From: an uncultured Bacilli bacterium | GTDB taxonomy: Bacteria > Bacillota_I > Bacilli_A > RF39 > UBA660 | DNA length: 53,688 nt | Direction: 5' to 3' | NCBI GenBank assembly: GCA_934177545.1 | Contig: CAKPPI010000002.1 | Span: forward strand, 1-53,688 | Shown: in pieces, positions 86 through 38,850 of the stretch | Numbering within the stretch: the stretch's first letter is position 1 | How the letters are laid out: every line of letters starts with the position of its first letter | Position numbers and translations under genes: made by a program | The notes under the pieces: model-generated | Databases searched by the model: none | Told to the model about the DNA's origin: nothing | What the model saw: only the letters and a program-made list of their open reading frames with translations

Positions 86-949
86 CTATTCTCCTCCAAA
101 TACTTGATAAGCATCTGTTACTACAAAGAAAGCATCTGGATCTATTAGATGAATTCCTTCTTTGAATCTATAATACTCTTTAGTTGGTATAACACTCATT
201 AAGACATTTTGATCTTTGTCTTTATAACCACCTGTTGCTTCAAATTTAGTAACTCCATGTTTCATTTCTTTTAAGATATACTCTTTAACTTCCTTATCTT
301 TTTTAGTAATTATATAAAATGCTTTAGCATCACTTATTCCTAGTAGTACTCTATCCATTGCCCAAGTAACTAGATATAAAACTATCAAGGCATACATTAA
401 TTTATTAAAGCCAAAGGCAAAGAATCCTAGTAAAACTATTGTTCCATCAGTAAATATCATTGCTTGTCCCATACCTATTATTAGTTTTTTAGAGATAATC
501 ATATTTAAAATATCAGTTCCTCCAGTAGAAAATCCAGCTTTAAAAATAAGTCCTGCTCCAACTCCTTGAAGTAGTCCACCAAAGATTGCTACTAAAAGCA
601 TCTCACTTTGATTAAAACTAACATATTTAGTTAAGAAACTTGTTAAATTAACAAAAATGGGAAATAAGATTGAACCTAAAATACTTAATTTTGTTTTTTC
701 TTTGCCTAAGAATATGTAGGACAAAACTAATAAAAATATATTAGCTATCATTATTACATAAGATTGATTAAATTTAAAGAAATGATTTAAGACGATAGAT
801 AAACCACTTACGCCTCCTGCTACTATGTTATTAGGTGAATAAAATAAATTAAAAGCAAGAGCTACTAGTAGACAACCAAAAATAAACTGAAAATATCTTT
901 TTATTTTACTATGCTGATAAATATTATTAACAATTGCCTTGGGATTCAT
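86..949 (-). CDS. YitT-family integral membrane protein with C-terminal DUF2179-like domain
   Basis: 287-aa ORF. The N-terminal two thirds are hydrophobic helices with Gly-rich GGVSG and GFSTGGTD segments. The soluble tail HGVTKFEATGGYKDKDQNVLMSVI...IDPDAFFVVTDAYQVFGGE fits the YitT/DUF2179 pattern. The start overlaps the prfB stop by 23 nt. Confidence 0.8.
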   Translation of the reverse strand: MNPKAIVNNIYQHSKIKRYFQFIFGCLLVALAFNLFYSPNNIVAGGVSGLSIVLNHFFKFNQSYVIMIANIFLLVLSYIFLGKEKTKLSILGSILFPIFVNLTSFLTKYVSFNQSEMLLVAIFGGLLQGVGAGLIFKAGFSTGGTDILNMIISKKLIIGMGQAMIFTDGTIVLLGFFAFGFNKLMYALIVLYLVTWAMDRVLLGISDAKAFYIITKKDKEVKEYILKEMKHGVTKFEATGGYKDKDQNVLMSVIPTKEYYRFKEGIHLIDPDAFFVVTDAYQVFGGE

Positions 950-2046
950 TCTTTGCTCCTTTCAAATATGCTTCCATAAATGGAGTTAAGTCTCCATCTA
1001 AAACTTTAGTTACGTTACTTGTTTCATAGGATGTTCTATGATCTTTTACCATTGAATATGGGTGCATTACATAACTTCTTATTTGTGAACCAAACTCTAT
1101 ATTCATTTGTTCTCCTTTTTCTTTAGCTAATTCTTTTTCCTTTTTTTGTTGTTCTAATACATAAAGTTTAGACTTTAGAACCTGTAGAGCTGTTTCTTTA
1201 TTTTGAATTTGACTTCTTTCATTCTGACAAGTTACTACTATACCAGTAGGAAGATGAGTTACTCTTACGGCACTATCCGTGGTATTTACTCCTTGACCTC
1301 CTGCTCCAGTTGAACGATATACATCTATTCTTATGTCCTTTTCATCTATATTTATATCTATATTTTTATCTATTTCTGGAGTAACATCAACACTTGCAAA
1401 TGATGTATGGCGTCTATTGGAAGAATCAAATGGAGATAACCTAACTAGACGATGAACACCTTTTTCTTCTTTCAAATAGCCATAAGCATAATTACCATCT
1501 ACTTTGAAAGAAACACTTTTAATACCAGCTTCTTCTCCTGCTTGATAATTATATAATGTTACTTTATAACCTTGTCTTTCACAGTATCTTAGATACATTC
1601 TATATAACATTTCTGCCCAGTCACAAGCTTCTGTTCCACCAGCTCCTGAATGAATATCAATAGTACAAGAATTAGCATCATAGTCACTATCAAATAGTAA
1701 ATATATTTCAAATTGTTCTACTTCTTCTTTTAATTTATCATAATTTTTTACTAATGTTTCTTCTAATTCATTGTCTGGTTCTAGGGATAATAGTTCTATT
1801 AAATCTAGAGCATTCTTAGTATCTCCTTTATATGAAATTATATTCTCTAAAATTGCATTTATGTTGCTAAGCTTAGAGAAAACGCTTTCTCTTAATTCTT
1901 TATTATCCCAGAATCCTTCTTCTAACTGTTTTTTTTCTAATTCTTCTTTTTCTTTTAATTTCTTATCACAGTCAAAGTAACCTCCAAAGTTCTGCTAATT
2001 TTTTATCAATCTTTTCATAATTTCTTTTTAATTCTGATAGTTCCAT
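927..2046 (-). CDS. prfB: Peptide chain release factor 2, expressed through a programmed +1 frameshift
   Basis: ORF0 starts at ATG 2046..2044 and encodes 24 codons (MELSELKRNYEKIDKKLAELWRLL) up to an in-frame TGA at 1974..1972. The +1 frame from 1973 stays open to 927. It contains the RF2 hallmarks SPF (RLSPFDSSNRRHTSFASV) and GGQ (STGAGGQGVNTTDSAVR). The track ORF 927..1610 is only its C-terminal part. Confidence 0.95.
1971..1986 (-). promoter_or_regulatory. prfB: prfB autoregulatory +1 frameshift site (SD-like GGAGG, 3-nt spacer, CTT TGA C)
   Basis: The minus strand reads TGGAGG TTA CTT TGA C. GGAGG lies at 1985..1981, slippery CTT at 1977..1975, TGA at 1974..1972 and the following C at 1971. 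This is the same architecture as the classical E. coli AGGGGG UAU CUU UGA C site. Confidence 0.9.
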
Positions 2047-2220
2047 AATAATCCCTCTTTCTATTCACATTTTAACAAATTATTTTTTATTAATCAATTA
2101 TGTGTATAAATTAGTAATTACTGCATAATATATTAGTGGGAAGGGTTCACGAATTTAGTGAAGATTCCCATTATATATAGATGATACATTAGTATCAAAA
2201 AAACAATGTAATCAAAGTGA

Positions 2221-3150
2221 TTAGATTGTTTTTTCTTTTACTTTAGCTTTCTCAGTAGCTGATACTAATGATAAATCACTATCTAACGAAGATATAATAT
2301 CTTCTTTTTTTATTTTTGATAAATCACTTTGTAATTTTTCACATTCTTCACGACTATTAGTTTCCGTATACATTTTTAGTGATGGTAATAAAATAAAGGG
2401 TTCTTTACAAATCCCTACTGTTCTTTTAATGTAGTCAAGTTGAAAATCATATTTTACTCCATCTATTATTTTTAATGTTGGCATTAATAGTCCTGTATCT
2501 TTATAATATTCATCTTTAGTTAATTTTCCAATAAATTTTACTTGTCTTTCACTATTAGAACTATTAATAGAATCAGCGGCAGTTAGTAATTGTTCTTTAT
2601 TTAGTTCTTCTTGATCATATAATAACTCACTTATTCCTCTAGCTTGATACTCTTCCCTACTATTTAATACTTTACTAGCTAGTTCTAGTGATATATTTTG
2701 TCTTAAAGCCTCATTATTAAGCAATATATTTCTCTCTGCTATTCTTTGATAACTTTCTTTTGATTTTTTTAGTAGTATTAATGATTCTTCTACCTCATCT
2801 TTTTTATGAATACTAGAACTACACATAACATCTTTCATACAATTAAGTAGGACCCCATCATCTGTTCTTGACAAGATAAAGGAATAATCTAAGATTTCTT
2901 CTTTTGATAAAAATGAATAACATAATAGTTTTCTTAGTCCCTTAGAGTATCTATTTGTTATTAAATCTTTTAATTCTTCTTTAGTAAATTTTCCTTCTTG
3001 TATGGCACTTACTGACATTAGTTCTAATATTCTTTCTATTTGTTTTTTATCAGTAGTTTCACTAAGTAATGTTACTACTAATATATCCTCTTTAGATAAC
3101 TTAACATCATATCCCATATTCTTTAATTTTTCTTCTACTTCTTTTAGCAC
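2221..3150 (-). CDS. Hypothetical protein, Lys/Glu-rich and probably helical, no recognisable domain
   Basis: 309-aa uninterrupted ORF co-directional with its neighbours. No TM segment or signal peptide, and no motif I recognise. Confidence 0.6.
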   Translation of the reverse strand: MLKEVEEKLKNMGYDVKLSKEDILVVTLLSETTDKKQIERILELMSVSAIQEGKFTKEELKDLITNRYSKGLRKLLCYSFLSKEEILDYSFILSRTDDGVLLNCMKDVMCSSSIHKKDEVEESLILLKKSKESYQRIAERNILLNNEALRQNISLELASKVLNSREEYQARGISELLYDQEELNKEQLLTAADSINSSNSERQVKFIGKLTKDEYYKDTGLLMPTLKIIDGVKYDFQLDYIKRTVGICKEPFILLPSLKMYTETNSREECEKLQSDLSKIKKEDIISSLDSDLSLVSATEKAKVKEKTI

Positions 3151-3239
3151 TTTAAACCTCCAAAATATTACTAGAAATACTATAACACATATTTAGCTAA
3201 TTATTAATTATTTTATCAAAAAAATGACCAGTTGTTGAC

Positions 3240-3770
3240 CTAGCCATTAGTTTTTGTTAATACTTTTTGATATGCCGTAGTTTCTCCTTCTTTTACACAA
3301 TCAACAAAGAACTTATTTCTCATTTTATAATATCCCTGCCAATCATTTCTTTTATTAGTTTTTATAACAGTATGTTCACTTTCAAAATCTAATTGACTTG
3401 GTGGCATAATACAGTTATGCATTTTTTCATTTTCTAAATTGACATATAATAAGAAATTATCTTTTACACTAGGAGTAGTACCAAAAGTATCTAAGTATTC
3501 TTCTAAAGTATATTTACCAATTAAAAACCAAATATCATTAGTTTCTTGTATAACACCTTGAGTATATTTTCCAAGTTCATGAATTGCAATTTCTTTATCA
3601 CTATTTAAGTTCAAACCATTTTCTAATTCTTCTTTTAAATGTAATAAATGAATATATCTCTTAACTTTAGGATTCTTTTCTAATTCTTGCATTTCTTCAA
3701 AGTTTGATCTAATTATTTCTTTTACATCTTCTATATCTAATCTTAAATTTTCTAAAATTTCTTGTTCCAT
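3240..3770 (-). CDS. Hypothetical protein, no recognisable domain
   Basis: 176-aa ORF immediately upstream of 2221..3150 on the same strand. Acidic helical N-terminus. A terminator from the upstream GNAT gene precedes it. Confidence 0.6.
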   Translation of the reverse strand: MEQEILENLRLDIEDVKEIIRSNFEEMQELEKNPKVKRYIHLLHLKEELENGLNLNSDKEIAIHELGKYTQGVIQETNDIWFLIGKYTLEEYLDTFGTTPSVKDNFLLYVNLENEKMHNCIMPPSQLDFESEHTVIKTNKRNDWQGYYKMRNKFFVDCVKEGETTAYQKVLTKTNG

Positions 3771-3917
3771 TCTATTCCCCCAATCTATAAATCTATATAA
3801 AAATTTTTACACTCAATACACTAATATACTCTAAAAGAACCATTTATATGTATAAATGGCATATTAATTATATAATAATTTCTATTTTATCACAAGTAAT
3901 TTTTGTATTTTATCTTA

Positions 3918-3960
3918 GAAAAAAAGCAAAAGCGATACATATTTTATAAGCTATGTATCA
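3918..3960 (-). terminator. Rho-independent terminator after the GNAT gene
   Basis: Minus-strand RNA reads GAUACAUA-GCUUAUAAAA-UAUGUAUC followed by GCUUUUGCUUUUUUUC. Stem arms are at 3952..3959 and 3934..3941. Confidence 0.7.
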
Positions 3961-3969
3961 TTTTTATAA

Positions 3970-4488
3970 TTATATTTCTTCAAATAAATATACATTTTCA
4001 GGTAGTTTTAGTTTTTCAAATACTCTTTGTTTTATTAATTTTCCACCCATATGTTTATAAAAGTCATTTGTAGGATTAGCTGCTAAACACCCTACTATCA
4101 TTTTTGTAAATCCCATATTTTTTAATTCTTTAATTGCCATAGCAAATAGCTTTCTACCATAACCCTGTCCTTTATAATCATTTATCAAGTATAAAGCATA
4201 CAACTCTCCACAATCATTATATTCAGCATCATCAGATACATCTACATTAATAAACCCTACTATTTCATTATTTATTTCAAGAACATATTGATGATTAATA
4301 TTCTTATCAAATTCTTTATAGAAATTATTTGCTCTTTCTTGTTCGTTTAAATAAAGATTATCTAAAAATTCATCATTTACTATACCTCTATAAGTTTCAT
4401 TCCATGCAGTTGTTACTATTCTTGCTACAGAAAAGCAGTCACTCTTTTTCATTTTTCTTATAATATAATCCATATTTTTCTCCTTCAC
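3970..4488 (-). CDS. GNAT-family N-acetyltransferase
   Basis: 172 aa. It has the acetyl-CoA binding signature YKGQGYGRKLF (Q/R-x-x-G-x-G/A) in a typical GNAT beta-alpha layout (ELYALYLINDYKGQGYG...IKELKNMGF). Confidence 0.85.
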   Translation of the reverse strand: MKEKNMDYIIRKMKKSDCFSVARIVTTAWNETYRGIVNDEFLDNLYLNEQERANNFYKEFDKNINHQYVLEINNEIVGFINVDVSDDAEYNDCGELYALYLINDYKGQGYGRKLFAMAIKELKNMGFTKMIVGCLAANPTNDFYKHMGGKLIKQRVFEKLKLPENVYLFEEI

Positions 4489-4790
4489 TATATAATGATT
4501 ATTCTTTAATTTTAATTGATACTTTTGAGCATTTTAAATATATAGTACTTTTATCTTATAAATATTTATATCCCATTAAATAAACTTTTATATCTAATAT
4601 CAATAGCTATCCTAAATAATAATAAGATAACTCTATGAGATCAGTAAGAAATAGTATCAAATTAAAATTCTAGAACTAATTTTTTATATAAATTAATTAT
4701 TAACACAATTATATATAAGTTAATTACTCTTTTCAATATATTTTCTCCTTGTAATTTTTTTGTACTTTCAAGTATATAGATACTAACTAT

Positions 4791-4819
4791 AAAAGAAAAA
4801 GGCCTTTCTATAGCCTTTC
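4791..4819 (-). terminator. Candidate terminator closing the 8780-4821 operon
   Basis: Minus-strand RNA reads AAAGGC-UAUAGAAAG-GCCUUU followed by UUCUUUU, directly after the stop at 4821. The stem is short and partly uses the U tract. Confidence 0.55.
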
Positions 4820-4820
4820 A

Positions 4821-5366
4821 TTAATTATCTTGAAGTATTATTTGTCCATCCATAATTGGTATATTTGGATAGCTTTCATCCATTAATGTGAAATTTCTAA
4901 GTGGAGCTTGAGGATTTGTTATTTCTACAGTTTGGTTTTCTACAGTCATAGTAATTGATTTAACACCATCATCAAATGTATGTCCTCCATCTCCTGCTAT
5001 TTGTTTGTAATATATTGGATTACTTCCAGTTGCAGCGAAAGGAACATTATTAAATACGGCATTACCATCCTGATTAGTAACAGCTTCTGTTCCAACTACT
5101 GTCCCTGTACTATCAGTTCTTATAAATCTTGCACCAACAATATCAACACCAGTAACAGGATCACCTGTATCAGTAACATGAAGAGTTAAAGTCCCTGTAG
5201 CACTTATAGTAAAAGCATATGTATTGGTACCTTCTACCACATTTACACTATTTGGAGTAAGAGTTGAAGAATCATATCCTCCAACTACTGCTGTAGCATT
5301 ATAAGTTCCATTAACTAACTCAATACTTCCTTTACCATTTGTTATGTTTATTGTCTGTCTTGCCAT
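4821..5366 (-). CDS. Small leaderless beta-rich protein (prealbumin/CarboxypepD_reg-like segment) with a shared C-terminal YPNI tag
   Basis: 181 aa, rich in Thr/Gly/Val/Asn, with no signal peptide or TM segment. The segment TGDPVTGVDIVGARFIRTDSTGTVVGTEAVTNQDGNAVFNNVPF resembles Cna-B/carboxypeptidase-regulatory-like beta-sandwiches. The C-terminal FTLMDESYPNIPIMDGQIILQD is shared with the upstream ORF. Confidence 0.7.
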   Translation of the reverse strand: MARQTINITNGKGSIELVNGTYNATAVVGGYDSSTLTPNSVNVVEGTNTYAFTISATGTLTLHVTDTGDPVTGVDIVGARFIRTDSTGTVVGTEAVTNQDGNAVFNNVPFAATGSNPIYYKQIAGDGGHTFDDGVKSITMTVENQTVEITNPQAPLRNFTLMDESYPNIPIMDGQIILQDN

Positions 5367-5689
5367 AATGTCATTTTACCTCCTTCTATTTTTATATTAG
5401 GATAATTCTTATCCATTAGTAAAACTGTAATGAGTTTACCATTGCTTTTATTATTAATATTTATATGATAGACTCTATTCTTTTTAGCAATTAAAGATAC
5501 TTTGATAACTGTTAAATTAGAATATATTATTAGGTTATAAAGTTCATTGTTACATATTGGTATTTTAATTCTTCCTAAATTATCAGTTTTACCTTCAAAA
5601 ACTACCTTATTACATTTATCCTTTAATTTAACATTTAATTTTACTTCTTTATCATTATAAAGTTTAATATAAATATAATCATTTTTCAT
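5348..5689 (-). CDS. Small leaderless beta-rich protein with a shared C-terminal YPNI tag
   Basis: 113 aa with no signal peptide. FEGKTDNLGRIKIPI is a prealbumin-like strand-turn motif. The C-terminus LLMDKNYPNIKIEGGKMTLWQD parallels the C-terminus of 4821..5366. The two genes overlap by 19 nt. Confidence 0.65.
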   Translation of the reverse strand: MKNDYIYIKLYNDKEVKLNVKLKDKCNKVVFEGKTDNLGRIKIPICNNELYNLIIYSNLTVIKVSLIAKKNRVYHININNKSNGKLITVLLMDKNYPNIKIEGGKMTLWQDRQ

Positions 5690-5743
5690 ATTTCACCTCA
5701 TTACACAATATTTTATAAATCAATTTAATATTTGGAAAAAGCA

Positions 5744-7621
5744 TTACTCCTCTACACTCCAAATTATTAATGTAGAATAATCCTCATCTTCTAATAAATC
5801 TTTACTCGGTTTAAGTAATAATCCTTTATCCGTAGAAAAAGTAACATTACTTACACTTATATTTCCACCATTATCACTTGATTCATATATTAGTTTCTTA
5901 TTAGTCTTTAAAATAATTTCCTCATTATCAAATTTTTTAAAAACTAATGAATCTATTAATACTTTTCCCTCTTTTTCTATCATTGGATTTGTATAATTTA
6001 AATATAGTTTCCACTTACTACTATTTATTCTACTATCAACTACTGTTACTATTGTTTGATTCTTTTTAGGTAAAATAAGTGGTTTAATAGATGACGGATT
6101 CATACTAAAAGGAATATTCTCTGTTACTCTTAAAAGGGTTAATTCTCCACTAAATGGTACTGTCACTTTTCTTTCGGTATAACAACTATTTAAACAAGAT
6201 ATTATTTTAATTCTTGTATTATCAGGAATAGTAGTATCAAGATCAGCTTCAAATAAACCATTTTCATCAGCAGTTGCTAGTAAGTTTTTACTATCATATT
6301 CTATTTTTACATTAGCATATGGTGTGGTATGACCTGATATGGTATTGGTAGAATTGAGGACTGGATGTACATTAGTTTTTAATTGTCCTAAAGTTAATAT
6401 CTTTATACCTTGAAATTTAAAACTAGTTATATCTGATATTGAGCTTAATTCACTATCAGTAAAATTGTGAGATGTAACTGTAGTAGTATCTTTACTAAAA
6501 GAGCCAGTTATTTCAGCAGGAGTATTTTCTTTATACCAGAAAAATGCAGGTTGATCATCTAGTGTACAAGCACTTGTATAATCTAGAGCATAAATCCACA
6601 TATTAATCCTTGAAAATTTAAAGGAAAAATCAACAGAATTATTGGCATATACTACATTGGCATTTTTAGTATAGATATTCACATATTTAGGATTATCTAA
6701 TATAAATTTTTGGTTTGTACCTTTAAAATAGATATTATAATTATCAGTTGGAGTAGTCATATAAGTATTTAGTACTGATATACTAGCTCCTTCTAAAACT
6801 TTAAAATCACCAAATACATTCCACATTGGGACTCGTTGATGGCTCTTTTCTATAAAAGTAAAATTAGCCATTTGTTCAATTATGACATTCCTAGCTCCAT
6901 GTGTTGTTGTAATAGCAAAACCATTTCCAGTAGTTAAAAGGAATTCTGCTCCATGTCCTACTATTAAATCAAGTCGATTAGTACCATTCATTAATTCTTT
7001 ATTAGTTGTGATATTTACATTACTATTAGGTACTATTTTAATATAAGATGGTATTACATCATTAAAGAAGAATACTGTGTTGGTAGTGGAATTACTTGTA
7101 ATTGTTGTATTTCCACCTATTATTATTCTATTAGAATCACATACTTTTTGAGCAGTTACACCATTTGTATCACTGACAGTTATAATAGAATCAATAATCT
7201 TTGTTGAACCATAGTAATTATTAGATAGTTCTATACCATTAAAATTAATATTATTATACTCAACAGTTAAGTTAGAATAATTAGGATGAGATGGCACATA
7301 AACTACGCTATAGGTATGGGAACTAACTATATTCATATTTTTAAGTATAATTCTTTTATTCGTAGTACTAACCGTTATAACATCTGTGCTATCAGTTAAA
7401 TTATTTGTATAGGTTGCTTTTATATTATTATATGTACCATCAATAGTTACTTTTGTTTTATTAGCATTTATTTTAAATCCACTCGTTAAAGTTATATCAT
7501 TACCTAAATATATATAATTATAATCATTTGTATTACTTAGTACATCTTTTAATTCTTCACTATTAGTTACTACCACTGTATTGTTATTAATTATTTCCAT
7601 ATTATCACTTTCCTTTACCAT
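5744..7621 (-). CDS. Leaderless beta-helix (pectate-lyase-like adhesive domain) / Ig-like / WxL-like domain protein
   Basis: 625 aa.
- N-terminus VVVTNSEELKDVLSNTNDYNYIYLGNDITLTSGFKINANKTKVTIDG plus long Asn/Thr/Ile-rich repeats, typical of right-handed beta-helix adhesive domains.
- aa ~425-480, GHTTPYANVKIEYDSKNLLATADENGLFEADLDTTIPDNTRIKI, looks like a bacterial Ig domain.
- The C-terminal ~140 aa carry two W-x-(L/V) motifs (SSKWKLYLNY and TLIIWSVEE) in WxL-domain spacing.
- There is no signal peptide, and only 46 nt separate it from the upstream stop. Confidence 0.7.
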   Translation of the reverse strand: MVKESDNMEIINNNTVVVTNSEELKDVLSNTNDYNYIYLGNDITLTSGFKINANKTKVTIDGTYNNIKATYTNNLTDSTDVITVSTTNKRIILKNMNIVSSHTYSVVYVPSHPNYSNLTVEYNNINFNGIELSNNYYGSTKIIDSIITVSDTNGVTAQKVCDSNRIIIGGNTTITSNSTTNTVFFFNDVIPSYIKIVPNSNVNITTNKELMNGTNRLDLIVGHGAEFLLTTGNGFAITTTHGARNVIIEQMANFTFIEKSHQRVPMWNVFGDFKVLEGASISVLNTYMTTPTDNYNIYFKGTNQKFILDNPKYVNIYTKNANVVYANNSVDFSFKFSRINMWIYALDYTSACTLDDQPAFFWYKENTPAEITGSFSKDTTTVTSHNFTDSELSSISDITSFKFQGIKILTLGQLKTNVHPVLNSTNTISGHTTPYANVKIEYDSKNLLATADENGLFEADLDTTIPDNTRIKIISCLNSCYTERKVTVPFSGELTLLRVTENIPFSMNPSSIKPLILPKKNQTIVTVVDSRINSSKWKLYLNYTNPMIEKEGKVLIDSLVFKKFDNEEIILKTNKKLIYESSDNGGNISVSNVTFSTDKGLLLKPSKDLLEDEDYSTLIIWSVEE

Positions 7622-7667
7622 AAATTATGCTAGAAAAATATTTTGAAATAATCAATTTTCATTACTT

Positions 7668-8780
7668 TTAATGTATTTTTACAACACTTAATATCGCATT
7701 AGTACTTCCATTAAATGTTATGTTAACTGCCATAGATGGTTTTACATTTAATGTTATCAAATCATCTTTACTTAGTGCTACAATGGTAGATGAACTTATA
7801 GAATTAATTATTTGTGCTTGAAATTCACTAGTAATATTTGTTGCTGGTTGTAATATATCATTAGCTCTTACTGACATAGTTAAAGAACATTCTTCATTGG
7901 TAGCACCACATAATGAATAAGATATGAGATAAACTCCATTTTCTTTTATTTTAATTGAATTATCATCTGGATATTCGGTAAGAAAAGCTGCTCCTTTTTC
8001 AGGCAAAGGAATAATATTATCTGTTCCTTGAAGTAAAGCAAGTGGAGTAGTAGACATTGAATATCTAATCCCATAAGAAGATACAAATTCTGTTCCTGGT
8101 GGTCCGGCTGGTCCTTGTGGACCTCTTTCTCCAGTAGCACCTTTCTCTCCTTTTGGAATTAAAAATGCTAAATGATGTACCCAGTTTTCAAAGGTATCCA
8201 TAACTTGAGCTGGTTCACCTGGTTCTAAAGTTTCTGTCTCATCAATAGCTATATGTTCTGTTCTTCCTATTTCTCCTGGTAATCCCCTTGGTCCCATATC
8301 TCCTTGGTCGCCTTTCTCTCCTTTTGGTATTTTAAAATCTAAAACTACATCAACAGGTGTACCAGTATTTACAACTTCAGCATCTTCCGTTGAATCAACT
8401 GTTTCAACAGTTCCAATTTGAATAGTGGCTGGTCCTTGATCTCCTTTTTCACCTTTTATTCCTTGAGGTCCAATATCTCCTTTATCTCCTTTAGGTCCGG
8501 GAATTCCTTGGGGTCCTATTTTTCCCTCTATCCCTTGCTCCCCTTTTGGTATTCTAAATCTTAAAACTACATCTTCATTTGTACCGATATTTTCTACTTT
8601 AGCTTCTTGATGTGACTCTACTGTTTCTGTAATACCTACTTCTATAGTAGTAGGTCCTTGTACTCCTCTATCTCCAGTATCTCCCTTTTCTCCTTTAGGT
8701 CCTGTTGGTCCTTGAATATAACAATTTCTATATTTATCTATTCTTTTTTTTAACTTCTCAAAATTATCATTATTATACAT
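7668..8780 (-). CDS. Collagen-like triple-helix repeat protein with a possible C1q/BclA-like C-terminal globular domain
   Basis: 370 aa. Four Gly-X-Y tracts lie at aa 24-43, 80-117, 154-172 and 211-229. Three ~36-aa beta modules interrupt them (TIEVGITETVESHQEAKVENIGTNEDVVLRFRIPKG and variants). A ~140-aa beta-rich C-terminal head follows (aa 230-370). No signal peptide. Confidence 0.85.
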   Translation of the reverse strand: MYNNDNFEKLKKRIDKYRNCYIQGPTGPKGEKGDTGDRGVQGPTTIEVGITETVESHQEAKVENIGTNEDVVLRFRIPKGEQGIEGKIGPQGIPGPKGDKGDIGPQGIKGEKGDQGPATIQIGTVETVDSTEDAEVVNTGTPVDVVLDFKIPKGEKGDQGDMGPRGLPGEIGRTEHIAIDETETLEPGEPAQVMDTFENWVHHLAFLIPKGEKGATGERGPQGPAGPPGTEFVSSYGIRYSMSTTPLALLQGTDNIIPLPEKGAAFLTEYPDDNSIKIKENGVYLISYSLCGATNEECSLTMSVRANDILQPATNITSEFQAQIINSISSSTIVALSKDDLITLNVKPSMAVNITFNGSTNAILSVVKIH

Positions 8781-8830
8781 AACAACCTCCTATTAGTATA
8801 ATATACAAAAATAATAATAATTCTACTATT

Positions 8831-8858
8831 AAAGAAAAAAACTATTCCTTTGAATAGT
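8831..8858 (-). terminator. Rho-independent terminator after the 8871..9701 membrane protein gene
   Basis: Minus-strand RNA reads ACUAUUC-AAAG-GAAUAGU followed by UUUUUUCUUU. The 7-bp stem arms are at 8852..8858 and 8841..8847. Confidence 0.8.
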
Positions 8859-8870
8859 CTATTATAAATA

Positions 8871-9701
8871 TCATTTTGATAAAACTTCTGCTACAGATTT
8901 TGCCATTTTTCTTTTACCTTTTGTTGGAACAAAATTATTTATAAATAAATTATTTTCATTATGTTTCAAACCAAAATAAGCAAAGAAACTAAATACTAAA
9001 GCACCAACAAAGTTAACAAATAAATCTTTCATAGTATCGTTTATACCTATATCTAAATAACCGTTATCTATTGTTTGGATTATATTTCCCTTAGTATCAT
9101 AAACAACTGTTTTTCCAATATTATCAATTATGACTGGCTTATTTTTACCATCAGGATTTAATGCTACTGATGATATTTCTTGTACAATCGTATCTTTTTG
9201 CATATCGAGTTTTAATATTTTATCGCTTCCATATTCAAAAAATTCCCATAATACTCCTATTGTCATAGAAAAACAAAAAGCTACTAAGCACAAATAAAAT
9301 GGTGATAAATTAATATGTGTACTATTATTGTTTAATAAATTTACTAAGGAAAAACCAACAGCTGTTGCTAAAAATCCATTAATTGTATGTAGCATTGTAT
9401 CCCAATAAGGAATTATTCCATAGAAATTATTAATTTCACCTAATATTTCAGCAGAAAATATAAATAAGTATATAGCTATTTCTAATCCATCTGGCAAAGT
9501 TATTTCAAATTTATTTTGAATAAATAATGGTGCAAATAATAATATTAATGATAATAAACATAATAAAGCATTATTTAAATCTCCTCTTATAAGTTGAAGA
9601 ACCATACATAATATAACTAAAAATCTCAATATTAAATATATAGCTAGAGAACTTCTTTTATTTTCTTTATAAGACATTTTGATTAATTTTTGAACTTTCA
9701 T
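8871..9701 (-). CDS. Polytopic membrane protein of unknown function
   Basis: 276 aa with about six hydrophobic helices and one ~70-aa hydrophilic loop (QKDTIVQEISSVALNPDGKNKPVIIDNIGKTVVYDTKGN...). I cannot assign a family with confidence. Confidence 0.65.
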   Translation of the reverse strand: MKVQKLIKMSYKENKRSSLAIYLILRFLVILCMVLQLIRGDLNNALLCLLSLILLFAPLFIQNKFEITLPDGLEIAIYLFIFSAEILGEINNFYGIIPYWDTMLHTINGFLATAVGFSLVNLLNNNSTHINLSPFYLCLVAFCFSMTIGVLWEFFEYGSDKILKLDMQKDTIVQEISSVALNPDGKNKPVIIDNIGKTVVYDTKGNIIQTIDNGYLDIGINDTMKDLFVNFVGALVFSFFAYFGLKHNENNLFINNFVPTKGKRKMAKSVAEVLSK

Positions 9702-9716
9702 TTTTCTCTTTCTCCT

Positions 9717-10121
9717 TTAGTTTTGAAACTTAATTTGTTCTCCTGTATTTAATGCAAATGCAATATCCGGATGAGCATAAGTTCCAATACTATATCTCCC
9801 ACCTTTTGAAATTATTCCTATTGCTTTAGTCCTTTTTATCCATTGTGTTGGTGACATTGCAAACGAATTTTTACCATACTCAGTTTTAATTTGGTCGAAT
9901 TCGATCAAATTAAAATTCTGATTATGAATTTCTTCCCATAGGCCAATATAATCAATATTATTTATTTTTCTTAACCAATTTTTAACTGTAAAAGATGGCT
10001 CATTTGAGTTTTGATACTTCACTGAATCAATTAAAGAAATATAATTAACATTTCCAGCTCTTAGTATTCCCACTTTATTTTCTTTAACTATTATTTCTGC
10101 AGTTACTAAATCTTTTTTCAA
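9717..10121 (-). CDS. KilA-N domain protein, apparently C-terminally truncated (mobile-element remnant)
   Basis: 134 aa. NYISLIDSVKY...NWLRKINNIDYIGLWEEIHNQNFNLIEFDQIKTEYGKNSFAMSPTQWIKRTKAIGIISKGGRYSIGTYAHPDIAF follows the KilA-N DNA-binding domain pattern. It stops right after the AHxDIAF motif, whereas full-length relatives continue for more than 100 aa. Confidence 0.65.
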   Translation of the reverse strand: MKKDLVTAEIIVKENKVGILRAGNVNYISLIDSVKYQNSNEPSFTVKNWLRKINNIDYIGLWEEIHNQNFNLIEFDQIKTEYGKNSFAMSPTQWIKRTKAIGIISKGGRYSIGTYAHPDIAFALNTGEQIKFQN

Positions 10122-10429
10122 TCTTTTTTCTCATTCCTACTTAGATTTTAAAAGATATTAACAAATATAATTATTGTTCACACCTTTATTTTACTACATA
10201 ATTTTAATTTTTGTGAACAAGTTTTGAAATAAACACAAGTCAAAGCACAATGTTAATATCATTTTAAATAATTTTTTTAGTTGTAATAACTCCATTATTA
10301 TCTTCTATAAGTTGTAAAGTTTATTTTTCTTTATTCATAAGTATTATTTTCTTTAAATTTTATAATTCTATCTTCAAAAGAAAAATGTTATCATATTTTC
10401 TGTGATAGCATTCCTTATTTTATGCAGAC

Positions 10430-10479
10430 TTGCGAGCTTATTTACCACAACAATTTTTATATTTTTTTCCTGAGCCACA
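10430..10479 (-). repeat. Degenerate copy C of the secA 3' end (SEC-C codons, stop and the first 8 nt of the terminator)
   Basis: The minus strand encodes ..LCGSGKKYKNCCGK-stop with no start codon. By hand alignment, 42 of 50 positions are identical to 14318..14367. Weaker similarity extends to about 10413. Confidence 0.8.
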
Positions 10480-10603
10480 CAGATGCGATGTTTTGCAATT
10501 CTGAGATCTTAGATACTATTCTAATCACTTTAAAACACGTTATTTTATGTTAATTCACATTAAATCGTTTTTGGCAAAACTCTACTAAAATGTAGATAAA
10601 AAT

Positions 10604-12370
10604 TTATTTTAGTTTTCCATAATACATGTCACTAAAGATTCCTTCTTTTTCAATCAATTCATCATATTTTCCACTTTCTTCAATCTTACCTTTATTCAAT
10701 ACAATTATTCTGTCGCAATTCTTTAAAGTAGTTAATCTATGAGCAATTGCTATTATAGTAGTATTGTTTTCTTTTTGTAATTTTTCTATTTCACTTTGAA
10801 TATGTTTTTCTGATGTGTTATCAAGAGCACTTGTTGCTTCATCTAATATTAATATTTTAGGCTTTCTTAAGAATATTCTTGCAATTGCAATTCTTTGTCT
10901 TTGTCCTCCTGAAAGATTATTTCCACCTTCAGATATTAATGTATCGAATTTTTCTGGTAGTTCTTCTATATAATCAAGTATATAAGCTTTTTTAGCAGCT
11001 TCTTCTACTTCTTCTATTGATACTTCTCTATTAATTCCATAAGTAATATTTTCATAAATTGTTCCAGCAATTAAAAATGGATTTTGAGGAACTAAGGCAA
11101 TTATATTAGAAATATCTTTTCTATTTAAGTTATCAATATTTGTATCATCCAAAATGATAGTACCATCTGCTTTTTCTAATTTACAAATTGATTTAATTAA
11201 TGATGATTTACCGCATCCTGAAGGACCAGCTATTCCTAAATACATTCCTTTTTCTATATCAATATTGAAGTCTTTTAGAATTAACTTATCTTTATCTTCC
11301 GAATAGTGAAAACTTAAATTTTTTATATTTATAATTTCATCAGTTACTTCATTATTTAATTCTCTTTTCGTATCCAAATATGAAAAATCATTTGGTATTT
11401 CAACCATTTCAAAGAAATCACTTGCTAGTATTGTACATTCTGATACTTCATCAAATATTCTGTGTAATTCTTCTAATGGTTTTGTTAATTGATTAAAACA
11501 TAAATAAGCTGTTAATACAGCACCTACTGATATTATACCTTTAGTTGCTAAATAAGTAGATATTCCTATTATTAATACAGTGAACACCGCCTGATTTATA
11601 AATTTTAAACAATCATATAACGCCATCGCTTTATGATGCTTCATTTCTTTATTTCTTAAAAATTCAGATTTAGTATCAAATCTATTTGTTTCAAAGTCAA
11701 CACTATCACAAATTCTAATAACTTCTATTCCATTAATAAGTTCAACTATTGTTCCATCCATACTTGATTTTCTTTCTAACAATTCTACTCTTATACCTCT
11801 TTGACTATTTATTTGAGCTAAAACAATAGTAACACCTATAGGAATAACCATTAACATAGGTAAAGCAAGTGTAATTGGCAAAGTTAAGAAAATTGTTATA
11901 ATAGCAGCCACACTATTAAAAATAGCTGGAGCAAAATCCATAAATAATAATTTTTCTAATTTTATAGTACCATCTAAGCATCTATTCATTCTTCCATGAA
12001 TATTACCTATCATATTCTTTCTAAAATATGATAATGGGGCCATTAATAGTGATTTTATAACCATTCCACGAGCTTTTTTTTCTGTTCTTGTTGCAACATC
12101 TTCTACCATTACTCTTCTTATAATCTTGATTATTTCATTACCTACATTAACTACAAGAATCAAAATAAGAAAAGGAACAACTTTTTCAAACGTAACACCA
12201 TTTACATTTAAAACATCATCTGTTAACCATCCAATTGCTTTTGGAGTCATCTGAGTTAAAACAGCTGATACAATCATTATTAATATAATAATTAAAAATT
12301 TTATTTTTTGCTTAAAATCTAACAATCTATATATTTTTCCTAATACCTTCTTCAAATTATTTCTTTTCAT
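10604..12370 (-). CDS. ABC exporter, fused permease and ATP-binding half-transporter (MsbA/MdlB type)
   Basis: N-terminal six-helix TMD, then an NBD with Walker A GPSGCGKSS, signature LSGGQRQRIAIAR and Walker B ILILDEATSALD. I place the start at the ATG preceded by GAGGTG (MKRNNLKK...). The track ORF extends 15 codons further, to 12415. Confidence 0.9.
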   Translation of the reverse strand: MKRNNLKKVLGKIYRLLDFKQKIKFLIIILIMIVSAVLTQMTPKAIGWLTDDVLNVNGVTFEKVVPFLILILVVNVGNEIIKIIRRVMVEDVATRTEKKARGMVIKSLLMAPLSYFRKNMIGNIHGRMNRCLDGTIKLEKLLFMDFAPAIFNSVAAIITIFLTLPITLALPMLMVIPIGVTIVLAQINSQRGIRVELLERKSSMDGTIVELINGIEVIRICDSVDFETNRFDTKSEFLRNKEMKHHKAMALYDCLKFINQAVFTVLIIGISTYLATKGIISVGAVLTAYLCFNQLTKPLEELHRIFDEVSECTILASDFFEMVEIPNDFSYLDTKRELNNEVTDEIINIKNLSFHYSEDKDKLILKDFNIDIEKGMYLGIAGPSGCGKSSLIKSICKLEKADGTIILDDTNIDNLNRKDISNIIALVPQNPFLIAGTIYENITYGINREVSIEEVEEAAKKAYILDYIEELPEKFDTLISEGGNNLSGGQRQRIAIARIFLRKPKILILDEATSALDNTSEKHIQSEIEKLQKENNTTIIAIAHRLTTLKNCDRIIVLNKGKIEESGKYDELIEKEGIFSDMYYGKLK

Positions 12371-12542
12371 AAATACACCTCTATTACAACTATAACACAT
12401 TTTTACCAACACCACTTTCGAAGTGAACGATTCTTGTTTTTCCCTTTTGTTATAAGAATTTTAACGTATTCTTGAAAAGTTGTTAAATGTAGATAATGTG
12501 TAGATAGTGCTGTAGTCTTTACAATTTATACCATTTTTTCAA

Positions 12543-12588
12543 GCAAAGAAAAATCTCGCAAACTCTTTATTTATAAGGTTTTGCAAGC
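12543..12588 (-). terminator. Terminator copy belonging to secA-3' repeat B
   Basis: Minus-strand RNA after the remnant stop reads CUUGCAAAAC-loop-GUUUGCGAG followed by AUUUUUCUUUGCUU. It is homologous to the secA terminator at 14286..14325. Confidence 0.6.
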
Positions 12589-12633
12589 TTATTTGCCACA
12601 ACTTTGTTTGTATTTCTTACCACTTCCACATGG
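12554..12633 (-). repeat. Degenerate copy B of the secA 3' end (SEC-C codons, stop and terminator hairpin)
   Basis: The minus strand encodes ..LPCGSGKKYKQSCGK-stop with no start codon (an in-frame TAA lies 12 codons upstream of the first Cys codon). By ungapped hand alignment, 68 of 80 positions are identical to 14291..14370, including 35 nt of non-coding terminator sequence. Confidence 0.85.
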
Positions 12634-12764
12634 TAAAATATTAAAACAGCCAAGTAATTTTTCCTTTTAAACTGGTATTTTTTATTTTAATTTAATAATT
12701 TTTTATTGAAATATTGCAAGTTTTTATTCAACAACTTATCTAATAACTTATCTAAAAAATATAT

Positions 12765-13349
12765 TTATATCTTATGACTATGACTGTTTATTAATTTAAA
12801 GTATTCAACAACTTGATCAGCAACTTCTTCTGGTTCTAAATTAGTATTATTTATTTTCAAATGATTTGGACAAATTAATTCTCCATCATTAGAATTTAAT
12901 CTATACTTTTCCATTGTATCAAGTAAATCTCTTTGACTTCTTTCAACATCATTTTTTGTAAATTTTGATGCTAATCTGTGAGGAGTTACATTTCTTTCTA
13001 ATCTTGTTTTCACATCTGCTTCTAATTCAACAAAATAAAATTGCCCACCTGTTGCTTCAAACATATTTCTTAAATTATTTAAATACTCTATATCTTCTGG
13101 TGAATCAAAGGCTGTTACAAAAGTAAAAATCATATCTATATCATATTGTATTGTAGTATCAAATGCACCTTTTCTAATTATTTTGTTCAATTCTTTTTGT
13201 GCAGGTGTGCCCATACCAAATATTTTATCTGAAACTTCAATGCTATCGTGGTTAACCATTAGAGAATATCCTAATCGTTCTCTAATTTTTTCTGCTATTG
13301 TCATTTTACCAACAGCTTGTGGGCCAGACACCACTATTAAATTTGCCAT
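12765..13349 (-). CDS. P-loop NTPase / small-molecule-kinase-like protein
   Basis: 194 aa. The N-terminus LIVVSGPQAVGKMT is a Walker-A-like loop, atypical in having Met where Ser/Thr is usual. Size and layout resemble shikimate/adenylate-kinase-fold AAA proteins. Confidence 0.6.
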   Translation of the reverse strand: MANLIVVSGPQAVGKMTIAEKIRERLGYSLMVNHDSIEVSDKIFGMGTPAQKELNKIIRKGAFDTTIQYDIDMIFTFVTAFDSPEDIEYLNNLRNMFEATGGQFYFVELEADVKTRLERNVTPHRLASKFTKNDVERSQRDLLDTMEKYRLNSNDGELICPNHLKINNTNLEPEEVADQVVEYFKLINSHSHKI

Positions 13350-13353
13350 TTTA

Positions 13354-14169
13354 TCACTCCTTTATATACCCTAAATATTTTAATTTTTCTATATCTTCAT
13401 CATGATATTCTACTTTTGATTCTAAATTCCATATTGCATTAGGAGAATATTTTTCAGAATACTCTAATACTTTTGCAATATCAATTGTTCCATGGCATAT
13501 TCCTAAATGTTCGTCATCATTATGATCAGAAATATTTTGTTTTCCATGATTATTATGTAAATGATAATACGCTATTCTATCACCCAATTTCTCAATCCAT
13601 TTTTCAACTGGCATAACTGAATTAGCATGTGCATGTCCAATATCTAAACATACTTTTAGTCTGTCATCGGCTACACCATCAATTATTTGTATTAACATGT
13701 CACTATCTAATTCAAATTGATTTTCTATACAAATAGTTACTCTACTATCTTTGTCTTTTAAGAACTCTTTCCAAAAATTTATAGATCTCTCAATATACTT
13801 TGGATAATAATAAGTACCAACCTTATAACCATTATGAATAACTATTTCTGTGCAGCCAAGTTTTGAAGCAACTTGATATGCAGTATTTAAATACTTCATT
13901 ATTTTTTCATAATCATAGTAATCTTTTGTTCCTGTTTCAACACCAGCATGTGGGGCATGTAAACTCTTACCACAATTCATATTATCTAAAACTGATTTTT
14001 CTTTCAATAATTCTGTTTCTATTCTAGAATATACTTCTTCATCTGATTCCCCAATTTTTCTTGTTATTGAATCAGCAAAAGCTTGAACTTCAATTCCTAA
14101 TCCATTTTTATTACATCTTCCAACAGTTTCTTCAAATGAAGAATCGTCACATAATCTTATCTCTCTCAC
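13354..14169 (-). CDS. Xylose-isomerase-like TIM-barrel protein (sugar phosphate isomerase/epimerase family)
   Basis: It has metal-ligand-type motifs LHAPH, IVIHNG, ICIENQ, CLDIGHAH and HLHNNHG in the usual AP-endonuclease-2/xylose-isomerase-like order. The start is placed at the GTG preceded by AAGGAAGTGA. The track ORF extends to 14229. Confidence 0.75.
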   Translation of the reverse strand: MREIRLCDDSSFEETVGRCNKNGLGIEVQAFADSITRKIGESDEEVYSRIETELLKEKSVLDNMNCGKSLHAPHAGVETGTKDYYDYEKIMKYLNTAYQVASKLGCTEIVIHNGYKVGTYYYPKYIERSINFWKEFLKDKDSRVTICIENQFELDSDMLIQIIDGVADDRLKVCLDIGHAHANSVMPVEKWIEKLGDRIAYYHLHNNHGKQNISDHNDDEHLGICHGTIDIAKVLEYSEKYSPNAIWNLESKVEYHDEDIEKLKYLGYIKE

Positions 14170-14285
14170 AATAATCACTTCCTTTTTTATTATATAATAT
14201 ACACCTTGTTTTAAGGCTGATTTCACCAAAAAAACTTATCTAAACGCCTTTTTTGAAGTAAAATTACCTAAAAATTGTAAGTAGT

Positions 14286-14325
14286 AAAAAGCTTGCAAGC
14301 CCGTTATTTATAAGGCTTTGCGAGC
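14286..14325 (-). terminator. secA rho-independent terminator
   Basis: Minus-strand RNA directly after TAA reads GCUCGCAAAGCC-UUAUAAAUAAC-GGGCUUGCAAGC followed by UUUUUAC. The stem has one mismatch and one bulge. Confidence 0.7.
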
Positions 14326-14370
14326 TTATTTACCACAACATTGCTTATATTTTTTACCACTTCCACATGG
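14291..14370 (-). repeat. Master copy A of the repeat: the genuine secA 3' end plus its terminator
   Basis: It encodes the SecA C-terminus CPCGSGKKYKQCCGK-stop and the terminator hairpin. It is the template for the similarity to 12554..12633 and 10430..10479. Confidence 0.85.
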
Positions 14371-19292: not shown

Positions 19293-19835
19293 TTAATCAA
19301 CTTGCTCAGTAGCTTCTACTCTTATTCTACTGTAGAATGATTTTGCCATAACATCGTTTGTAGCATCTAAGTTTAACCATAAACGAAATTCAAAGCTTTG
19401 AGTAGTATTACCTGCTATTGAATAAGAACCTAATTTATTGCTACTAGTTGATAGTTTCCCATTTGATACTGATGTCCCATCTTTCTTTAAATCATATGAT
19501 AAGAAACTATGAGTAAATGTTGCACAATCAGTACAATCACTATCATCATCTAGATAAACATCATATGTTATAGTTCTAGTACCAGTATTTTTTAAGGTAA
19601 AGGTATAAGGTGTATTCTTAAGTCCATCACTATCTTCTTGAGGAGCTACTTTAGTAAGGGCAATAGTTGAGGTTCCTTCAGTATAATTTAGTTGAAGGTT
19701 TTTTGCTATTAAAGTTATGTTTTTATCTCCTCTTAAAGTCATTTTAGCTAGAGCAAAACTTATTCCTACAAAAATAACTATTAATATTAAAAGACTAATA
19801 ATTATAAGTTTCTTGTTACTATCAATTTTTTTCAT
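19293..19835 (-). CDS. Orphan TasA/CalY-like protein with a SipW-type signal peptide
   Basis: 180 aa. The N-terminus KKLIIISLLILIVIFVGISFALAKMTL resembles the signal region of the 37382-39486 paralogues. Motifs YTFTLKNTGTRTITYDVYL, FEFRLWLNLDA and the C-terminal FYSRIRVEATEQ parallel TasA ..IKLQFSFEATQ. Confidence 0.7.
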   Translation of the reverse strand: MKKIDSNKKLIIISLLILIVIFVGISFALAKMTLRGDKNITLIAKNLQLNYTEGTSTIALTKVAPQEDSDGLKNTPYTFTLKNTGTRTITYDVYLDDDSDCTDCATFTHSFLSYDLKKDGTSVSNGKLSTSSNKLGSYSIAGNTTQSFEFRLWLNLDATNDVMAKSFYSRIRVEATEQVD

Positions 19836-26789: not shown

Positions 26790-26807
26790 ATCTCCCCTTT
26801 TAAAGTT

Positions 26808-35364: not shown

Positions 35365-35365
35365 C

Positions 35366-37322: not shown

Positions 37323-37381
37323 CCACTTATCATTCCTTCTATTATAAATATATCACATTTTAGAAGGATTTAAAAGGAAAG

Positions 37382-38017: not shown

Positions 38018-38063
38018 ATACCTCTCCTATTCTATCCAAATTGTAGCATATTTTTATTTTATG

Positions 38064-38098
38064 GTAAAGAAAAAAGTGTCATAGATTAGACACTTTTA
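38064..38098 (-). terminator. Rho-independent terminator after paralogue 2
   Basis: Minus-strand RNA reads AAAGUGUC-UAAUCUAU-GACACUUU followed by UUUCUUU. It differs from the 38808..38842 terminator at a single loop base. Confidence 0.85.
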
Positions 38099-38113
38099 TA
38101 GAGTAAATAAATA

Positions 38114-38740: not shown

Positions 38741-38807
38741 CTTTGTCTAACCTCCTTACAATATAAAGATAACACAGATAAGTATAAAATAACAAGTATT
38801 TTTTGAT

Positions 38808-38842: not shown

Positions 38843-38850
38843 TTGGTAAA

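Follow-up and report, generated by a model that had tools for sequence, protein, structure and literature searches.

The described systems that come closest to the locus treated here belong partly to the spore surface and partly to the vegetative cell. On the spore side, the BclA nap, F-ENA/F-BclA and the A-ENA "ruffles" combine collagen- or C1q-like proteins with small structural subunits and need no signal peptide (PMC12357932, PMC13111695); A-ENA are alpha-helical endospore appendages (PMC13111695). The mother cell produces the proteins of the endospore appendage (ENA) loci, which then assemble on the spore or around it. The chromosomal ribbon-appendage locus of Clostridium taeniosporum (P29a/P29b, GP85, CL2, CRD1/2) encodes a collagen-like glycoprotein and Ig-like (DUF11) proteins, which are transcribed in separate units from several internal sigma-K consensus promoters and form the spore appendages without possessing export signals (PMC5749712). 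On the vegetative side stand the WxL/Csc clusters of Lactobacillales and Listeria, whose WxL domain binds peptidoglycan or the cell wall, the Pectate_lyase_5/SRRP-BR adhesins, and the sortase pilins with their CnaB stalks (BcpA, SpaD, GBS52, EbpB, CnaB2). The locus analyzed here consists of four minus-strand genes, A to D, in a 53,688-nt stretch (the window) of contig CAKPPI010000002.1 from an uncultured Bacilli bacterium. It shares traits with each of these systems and is a member of none, as it has neither ENA subunits nor the Bacillus-type BclA leader, the make-up of classical WxL clusters or the features of sortase pilins. We think that it probably encodes a module of the outermost spore surface that is made in the mother cell and includes a leaderless relative of WxL-type adhesins.

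All four open reading frames are intact and lie where the original prediction had placed them, with gaps of 46 and 54 nt and a 19-nt overlap between C and D. Gene A (7668..8780) encodes a collagen-like protein of 370 aa, gene B (5744..7600) a beta-helix adhesin of 618 aa, gene C (5348..5689) a small protein of 113 aa, and gene D (4821..5366) a protein of 181 aa with a CnaB-type core. All four products are leaderless, and the earlier statement that they lack export signals holds, as neither a hydrophobic N-terminus nor a transmembrane segment, LPXTG motif or lipobox is present; the Kyte-Doolittle maximum over 19 residues does not exceed 1.45 in A to D, compared to 2.57 in a neighbouring membrane protein.

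Protein A resembles BclA, as known from B. anthracis/cereus and, as BclA1-3, from C. difficile, in its N-terminal segment, GXY region, BclA_C head and missing signal peptide, in the sigma-K-type promoter that precedes its relatives, and in the hair-like outer filaments that it is predicted to form. The Pfam family Collagen (PF01391) is matched with 52.7 bits (cut-off 27.2) and the TNF/C1q-like BclA_C (PF18573) at residues 248-369 with a marginal 39.4 bits (cut-off 38), which bears out the predicted collagen-like protein with a beta-rich head. BclA_C was also recorded in relatives of A, there without a flag for weakness. In the window, A begins with a 23-aa charged segment with one cysteine, whereas two cysteines flank this segment in the relatives, most of which possess a charged helix of about 27 aa bracketed by cysteines (MNNC..YERIRKKIEEERKKYKFCYIQ). 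This helix was considered as a possible A_ENA domain, which was rejected, as there is no Pfam match and the segment is too short. Four short GXY runs follow, which add up to 102 residues and are interrupted by three globular inserts, each about 36 aa long; across the relatives the GXY total is 81-120 residues and the TNF-like head is constant at 139 aa, and the whole architecture is nearly invariant in 47 loci. Thus, unlike BclA, protein A has a short collagen part (about 100 residues) that is interrupted by three phage-collagen-like inserts and is nearly constant rather than hypervariable in length across species, its N-terminus is a charged helix bracketed by cysteines, and both the TIGR03720 leader and an ExsF partner in the module are missing. 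To our knowledge, the BclA proteins of C. difficile also lack the Bacillus-type exosporium leader. A profile of the A head found a TNF-superfamily ligand as its sole match in the PDB, at a non-significant E of 1.5, and PDB sequence searches with single A, B and D sequences and with profiles of the A head and of C gave nothing usable.

The collagen part is also where the module looks most like a phage fibre. The collagen-like regions of A give many PHROG tail-fibre matches, and inserts 1 and 2, tested without their collagen flanks, match the phage families phrog_21765 (E 2e-6) and phrog_4120, a minor-tail family (E 7e-3). Such inserts and collagen runs are expected for bacterial collagen-like proteins generally. 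The head of A and the proteins B, C and D have no PHROG matches, and in 50,697 phage genomes tblastn detected no counterpart of C, D or the A head.

Protein B connects the module with the vegetative adhesins. It is homologous over its full length (E ~1e-60) to proteins with Pectate_lyase_5, Big_6 and WxL domains, and because of this homology we regard it as a leaderless adhesin of this type, in which a Pectate_lyase_5-like beta-solenoid is followed by a Big_6-like Ig domain and a WxL-like C-terminal domain. Two of the homologous proteins, P0273 and P0276, possess signal peptides and score above the cut-offs for WxL (PF13731; 35 and 31 bits) and Pectate_lyase_5 (PF20585; 37 and 39 bits), and leaderless relatives of B reach either a sub-threshold WxL match (E 2e-4 to 1e-2) or 34 bits for Pectate_lyase_5. 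The window protein itself gives only a sub-threshold Big_6 match in Pfam and no direct match to WxL or Pectate_lyase_5, and a Pfam search with 17 members of the B family, up to an E of 10, added no beta-helix or WxL match. The AlphaFold2 (AF2) model, which was computed from a shallow alignment of 17 sequences that are 75-100% identical, is confident only for residues 10-210 (predicted local distance difference test, pLDDT, 80-93). In a Foldseek search this part has as its top match the binding region of an L. reuteri SRRP (5ny0/5nxk, E 1e-4, probability 1.0), and tailspikes and pectate lyases appear only at an E above 0.2. The label "beta-helix / Ig-like / WxL-like" that B had been given from its sequence is therefore supported, both by the full-length homology and by the beta-solenoid model. 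The earlier length of 625 aa corresponds to a frame that is indeed open to 7621, but the true start is almost certainly Met8 at 7600, because a Shine-Dalgarno sequence (AAAGGAAAGTGA) precedes it and the ATG of the 625-aa version overlaps a conserved -10 box.

Beta-helix folds are typical of tailspikes, and weak tailspike matches were seen. Against BFVD, the B model gave only weak generic beta-helix matches with template modelling (TM) scores below 0.25, in contrast to its SRRP match. At the sequence level, the only phage matches of B are four unannotated Listeria "phage" contigs at 24% identity, and profiles of B and D found no relative among 2.9 million IMG/VR contigs.

An exhaustive HMMER search with B returned 423 representative clusters, which fall into two classes. 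Among 97 full-length representatives, 38 have a signal-peptide-like N-terminus, often with a linker behind it, and 30 of these 38 end in W.L.DAP. The remaining 59 are leaderless by score, a class that still includes a few proteins with a visible signal peptide, e.g. P0312 and P0321; 54 of the 59 lack the W.L.DAP ending. Most of the leaderless proteins begin straight at the beta-helix (M.I.D..TVVV), and in the window B ends with IIWSVEE in place of W.L.DAP. In comparison with the WxL/Csc clusters and the Pectate_lyase_5/SRRP-BR adhesins, B thus shares the full-length homology and an N-terminal model that matches SRRP, whereas B and about 55 clusters like it lack the signal peptide, the W.L.DAP ending and the WxL/WxLIP (DUF916/DUF3324, PF06030/PF11797) partners, and the leaderless class instead has mother-cell-type promoter boxes and small leaderless Ig-like and collagen-like partners. 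No WxL, WxLIP or sortase gene was found in the flanks of the module loci that were examined. The literature that was searched contained no report that joins WxL proteins with the exosporium.

Proteins C and D had been predicted as two small beta-sandwich proteins, and for D this could be substantiated. The AF2 model of D has a pLDDT of about 90 over residues 55-155, and Foldseek matches this core (E 8e-6 to 1e-3, TM scores up to 0.80 on the target) to CnaB-type domains, with B. anthracis TIE (6fwv, E 8e-6) and furthermore BcpA, CnaB2 (8bdw, TM 0.80), GBS52, EbpB and SpaD; in Pfam, weak matches to SpaA and CarboxypepD_reg are found. The family of D has 1140 members in the host lineage and ends in the motif L(T/M)D.S(F/Y)PNIPI.DGQIIL.DN. 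Protein C, which contains conserved cysteines, has no family match in Pfam, PHROG or NCBIfam and no PDB match, but its C-terminal motif (LMD..YPNIKIEGGK..LWQD) is common to D, with the consensus L(M/T)D..(Y/F)PNI.I..G...L..D. C proteins are also recovered with a profile of D (E 1e-6 to 1e-3), and C is assigned as a shorter paralogue of D through this motif. With the sortase pilins, D has the CnaB-type fold in common and nothing else. It possesses no signal peptide, no LPXTG, no YPKN pilin motif and no evident isopeptide triad in the usual strands, and it consists of a single domain plus the family-specific C-terminal motif. Reading the (Y/F)PNI element as an isopeptide-bond or pilin motif was dropped, since the required residues are absent.

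The ENA loci (F-ENA/F-Anchor/F-BclA, the S/L-ENA ruffles and the A-ENA fusions) are similar to the module in being compact and in combining small leaderless proteins with a collagen/C1q protein, and their accessory DUF11, CarboxypepD_reg and SdrD_B-type Ig domains recall the Ig-like proteins of the module. In contrast to these loci, none of A to D has a Pfam match to DUF3992 (S/L-ENA), DUF4183 (F-ENA) or A_ENA (PF26595) at an E of up to 0.1-1, and the N-termini of A to D do not fit the F-ENA hook motif M-P-psi-psi-x-P-psi. We know of no described ENA locus, those in PMC12357932 and PMC13111695 included, that contains a WxL-type beta-helix adhesin. The C. taeniosporum locus likewise has no beta-helix or WxL protein, and its likeness to the module is one of gene make-up rather than of sequence comparison; the host here belongs to the reduced-genome Bacilli.

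Conservation of the module was examined with one genome per GTDB species, which gave 50 loci with a B homologue. Of these, 47 derive from metagenome-assembled genomes (MAGs) of uncultured gut "Bacilli", "Tenericutes" or "Mollicutes", from "bacterium" isolates, or from Clostridium sp. CAG:433 and Acholeplasma sp. CAG:878, and three stand under other bin labels, e.g. Muribaculaceae and Acidaminococcus; three MAGs are 99-100% identical to the window, which has about 26% GC. The host belongs to an uncultured lineage of gut Bacilli with small genomes (CAG-433-like MAGs) and is not a Clostridium. Gene order (A-B-C-D) and strand agree in about 45 of the 50 species-level loci, with protein identities between the window and its relatives of 65-80% for A, 69-80% for B, 48-69% for C and 68-78% for D. 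The ratios of non-synonymous to synonymous substitutions (dN/dS) against the relatives are 0.14-0.23 (A), 0.04-0.14 (B), 0.15-0.44 (C) and 0.23-0.51 (D), which shows the four genes to be functional and under purifying selection. Within the species (window compared to L001-L003), D is only 94-95% identical with a dN/dS of 0.51 and B is 100% identical with a dN/dS of 0.04; the divergence of D could reflect local diversification or recombination.

The module always sits between hpf-secA and prfB, although the flanking genes vary by species, and the remaining window is the usual origin-proximal region of Firmicutes (dnaX ... mfd, spoVT ... ftsH, lysS ... secA, prfB). The secA-prfB interval (927-16812 in the window) is a variable island across the family, which here holds KilA-N, a 276-aa membrane protein, GNAT and two unknown ORFs, and in relatives RhuM or a copper-resistance operon instead. 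The KilA-N fragment about 1 kb upstream, which had been taken as a hint to a phage, occurs only in the window's species and turned out to be cargo of this variable island that is unlinked to the module. More than 50 loci are flanked by housekeeping or accessory genes and never by capsid, tail or lysis genes. The cluster was not found beside tail genes either in these genomic contexts or in three phage collections, contrary to what the prophage alternative of the original prediction implied.

An indication of the timing of expression comes from promoter boxes that recur in the family. All counts refer to distinct upstream sequences of related loci, and they hence do not represent independent events. 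A CATAnnnTA box is located about 66 nt before A in 35/43 upstream sequences, 27 of them with AC-N16/17 in front, at -28 to -30 before B in 40/46, where the full AC-N16/17 pattern is never found, and at -28 before C in 29/39, of which 24 have AC-N17; before D, which served as internal control, it is found in none of 40. By chance, 8% of 120-nt stretches in these loci would contain at least one CATAnnnTA; the full pattern occurs 0.11 times per kb. The boxes are conserved while the surrounding intergenic sequence diverges. In most relatives the conserved block before A is TTCATTATACATTTTAAAAATATTTTCATAAATTAAAATAGAAG, i.e. AC-N16-CATAAATTA, and this promoter (P_A) can also be written as ATACA-N15-CATAAATTA. 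Before B (P_B) the relatives have CATAAATTA or CATAATTTA, and before C (P_C) ACA-N16-CATAAAATA. The family motif is identical to the sigma-K consensus applied to the appendage genes of C. taeniosporum, [a/c]AC[a/c]-N16-CATA-N3-TA (PMC5749712), a consensus that may not be the host lineage's own; for P_A and P_B, sigma-E is a possible alternative to sigma-K. As a control within the window, no clean full match to the sigma-K/sigma-E pattern was found before yabG, yabP or spoVT, and by eye only partial boxes are seen before yabG (CATAAACTT) and yabP (CATACCTT). Many species among L013-L048 also show a recurrent AC-N16/17-CATAnnnTA inside the coding region of B at about 1230-1270 nt (around codon 417), which may be due to chance in the coding sequence or represent an internal promoter.

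Because a hairpin with a T-run follows A and boxes precede A, B and C, the genes form three transcription units, A, B and C-D, in most relatives, and the single four-gene operon that had been proposed is not supported. Concerning the two terminators predicted to flank this operon, hairpins are indeed present at 8831-8858 and 4797-4819, but both are weak, with -8.5 kcal/mol each. The latter, a terminator-like minus-strand hairpin with a T-run (4797..4819), lies directly 3' of gene D and has an 8-bp stem with three GC pairs in a consensus scan (RNAfold -8.5 kcal/mol, z -1.5). The former, with its T-run, belongs to the preceding membrane-protein gene and forms, together with the adjoining 50 nt, the minus-strand region upstream of A (8781..8858).

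Leaderless B homologues are not restricted to the host lineage. They were examined in eight other Firmicutes lineages (L056, L057, L060, L064, L065/66, L067, L068/70 and L069) with GC contents of 25-51%, and in all eight a CATA-type box is located 22-80 nt upstream, although only as the relaxed form CATAnnnT in L065/L066. In seven of the eight, a leaderless protein with a length of 126-131 aa is encoded next to the homologue; among these partners, three have DUF11/CLIPPER matches, two have weak ones and two none, and several of their genes also possess a CATA box. A collagen-like gene is adjacent in two lineages (L065, L068). Homology of C and D to the DUF11-like partners was considered and not retained, and because the best E in a six-sequence search was only 0.003, they are taken to be analogous. 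The secreted B homologues (L061, L062), by contrast, are part of WxL-WxLIP clusters and have no CATA box before the first gene or before the homologue, one chance match lying in upstream coding sequence. A connection to a known spore structure is found in an Oscillospiraceae MAG, in which a collagen gene, the B homologue and a small leaderless protein adjoin several A_ENA (PF26595) genes. The promoter block around CATAA(A/G)TTA that precedes the B homologue is nearly identical to that of one A_ENA gene.

Two further observations concern these loci. In L068, at about 4920-5000 and 1293-1360 (the same MAG as L070, JAVBTT010000006.1), a 12-bp inverted repeat, TATTACGGCGGC ... GCCGCCGTAATA, brackets the box and may act as an operator, form a hairpin or constitute a small switch. 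In L061 (80-6424, GCA_031554055.1), the secreted cluster encodes a 506-aa collagen-like protein, WxL and WxLIP proteins and then a Pectate_lyase_5+WxL protein, and it adjoins a gene for a Cys-rich protein of 291 aa with a faint match to the Clostridium exosporium protein CsxA; a CATACTATA box lies 97 nt upstream of the Cys-rich gene.

The orders RF39, RFN20 and ML615J-28 are predicted to be a mix of sporulators and non-sporulators and lack nearly all known coat proteins (PMC10868615). The sporulation genes that had been recognized in the window could be confirmed by Pfam for YabG (292 bits), YabP (62), SpoVT_C (88) and SpoVG (120); a YabQ match exists as well, but at 24 bits it remains below its cut-off. 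The presence of yabG and spoVG agrees with the description of RF39 in PMC10868615.

The family promoters, the split into leaderless and secreted B proteins, the A_ENA link and the sporulation genes of the host agree with each other, and they favour the spore-surface nap or appendage that the original prediction had preferred. We think, with a probability of roughly 0.6, that A to D represent a late-sporulation module that is expressed in the mother cell and forms a nap or short appendages with an adhesin on the outermost spore surface. The detailed model of assembly that follows deserves considerably less confidence than this general assignment. RNA polymerase with sigma-K (or sigma-E) would transcribe the three units in the mother cell, and no export would be needed because the products are proposed to assemble directly on the outer layer of the forespore. 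Protein A would trimerize through its collagen runs and TNF-like head to a fibre of about 30 nm that is fixed at the Cys-flanked N-terminal helix. Proteins C and D could serve as Ig-like connectors or base units that dock via their common C-terminal peptide, and B would be held by its WxL-like domain with the beta-solenoid adhesin domain facing outward. In this position, B might mediate adhesion between spore and host, spore and mucus, or spore and spore, and thereby aid transmission.

A number of observations weigh against the assignment to the spore surface. They concern first of all the promoters of the window itself. In the predicted promoter region of A (8781-8830) no sigma-E/sigma-K promoter was found; the window aligns with the relatives only downstream of their -10 box, and the region up to this box has been replaced by the end of an inserted membrane-protein gene, so that P_A is absent. 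At P_C the first C of the -10 box is changed to T (TATAAAATA, 5709..5717, minus strand, where relatives have CATAAAATA) and the -35 element reads CC instead of AC, although CATAAAATA is retained in four further strains of the species (L001-L003, L055). The only intact -10 box of this kind in the window module is that of P_B (CATAATTTA, 7629-7621, i.e. 7621..7629 on the minus strand, 29 nt 5' of the true B start codon), a promoter that has no conserved -35 "AC" in the family as a whole. The mutation in P_C and the loss of P_A suggest that regulation is altered or decaying in the window's species, and because P_A is replaced and P_C mutated, regulation in the window may rest on P_B and read-through. 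Furthermore, with -10 boxes at these positions the transcripts starting before B and C would have a leader of only about 12 nt, and all promoter calls are sequence matches in AT-rich DNA. The remaining points concern the proteins. The BclA_C score of A is marginal, and A has no TIGR03720 Bacillus exosporium leader in NCBIfam at an E of up to 0.1. No ExsF, CotY or CsxA homologue is encoded in the module, and none of A to D matches a known family of appendage subunits. The C-terminal two thirds of B, with the Ig and WxL parts, are modelled with low confidence, a role of the WxL domain on a spore is speculative, and the functions proposed for C and D are conjectural.

If these points are given more weight, A to D could be seen as a surface or extracellular structure of vegetative cells, which we consider unlikely. 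The leaderless proteins would then have to exit non-classically, through lysis, through a holin or by a secretion system as yet unknown. The WxL-like domain of B would attach to the cell wall, as WxL domains do in Lactobacillales, and the CATA motifs would be due to chance or to another sigma factor. Indeed, it is in vegetative WxL cell-surface clusters that the B family is best known, folds of the CnaB and DUF11 kind are typically seen in pilins and fibrillar adhesins of vegetative cells (PMC12617251), sporulation of the host lineage has never been observed, and the defects of P_A and P_C in the window fit this explanation as well. It is difficult to reconcile, however, with the joint loss of the signal peptide, of the W.L.DAP ending typical of the secreted proteins and of the WxL/WxLIP partners in the leaderless clade, and no secretion genes are conserved beside the module. 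A chance origin of the CATA boxes is also hard to bring in line with their constant placement in front of three genes in about 40 species, and with their occurrence before the leaderless homologues of eight lineages, including genomes of 50% GC in which the motif is rare. The tie of one B homologue to an A_ENA cluster equally speaks against a vegetative role.

A second alternative keeps the association with the spore and differs from the proposed nap or appendage only in the mode of attachment. The proteins would not be anchored but would form a loose extrasporal matrix or parasporal fibres that are shed with the spore, like the "sporesilk" of A-ENA. The mother-cell promoters and the missing export signals are equally in line with both possibilities, and the absence of an exosporium-anchoring leader on A and of a basal-layer protein in the module, together with the leaderless homologue that adjoins genes for A_ENA matrix fibres (PMC13111695), would even fit an unanchored structure. 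Nevertheless, we regard it as rather improbable, as A to D are unlike self-polymerizing fibre subunits, with no A_ENA, DUF4183 or DUF3992 matches, and as the characterized collagen proteins with a BclA_C head are anchored nap or tip fibrils (PMC12357932).

Finally, a domesticated prophage tail-fibre remnant, in which A and B would derive from a receptor-binding fibre or tailspike and C and D from assembly or connector proteins, and which would today form a tailocin-like or surface structure or have no role, is so improbable that we regard it as essentially excluded, given the phage-collection searches, the fixed site between secA and prfB, the restriction of KilA-N to one species and the purifying selection on A to D across about 45 species.

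Two other regions of the window contain genes that may be of interest in their own right. A signal peptidase I of the SipW/archaeal type is encoded at 36573-37322 on the minus strand (TIGR02228, 91.6 bits, cut-off 51.85) and adjoins three paralogues of about 210 aa each (37382-39486) as well as other small proteins, which have a basic and hydrophobic N-terminus and no family match. This region, which comprises 34936-39486 (minus strand) and 19293-19835, resembles tapA-sipW-tasA and may represent another fibre or matrix system. In addition, two tandem paralogous genes for proteins of about 340 aa at 25776-27830 have no NCBIfam match.

If the assignment of A to D to the spore surface is accepted, a more general proposal can be made, which we put forward tentatively and hold to be somewhat less than evenly probable. 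The leaderless WxL-type beta-helix proteins, which range from Oscillospiraceae to the reduced-genome gut Bacilli and form about 55 clusters at 50% identity, may represent a widespread, hitherto unrecognized class of endospore-surface adhesins. Sigma-K promoters would drive their synthesis in the mother cell, and they would be mounted together with collagen-like fibres and with connectors of the Ig-like (CnaB/DUF11) type. In the CAG-433-like lineage, the four-gene module might then be the main ornament of the outer spore coat and drive spore adhesion and host-to-host transmission.

The comparison of the leaderless with the secreted B proteins suggests that the architecture of a vegetative cell-wall adhesin has been re-used for the spore surface, and if this is true, it would add a new class of components to the biology of spore naps and appendages. 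The uncultured Bacilli orders in question (RF39, RFN20 and relatives) are common in human and animal guts and have never been grown. The module provides concrete candidates for the make-up of their spore surface and hints at how such spores may stick to hosts or to each other, and, if true, part of the "missing coat protein" gap of these orders would be filled.

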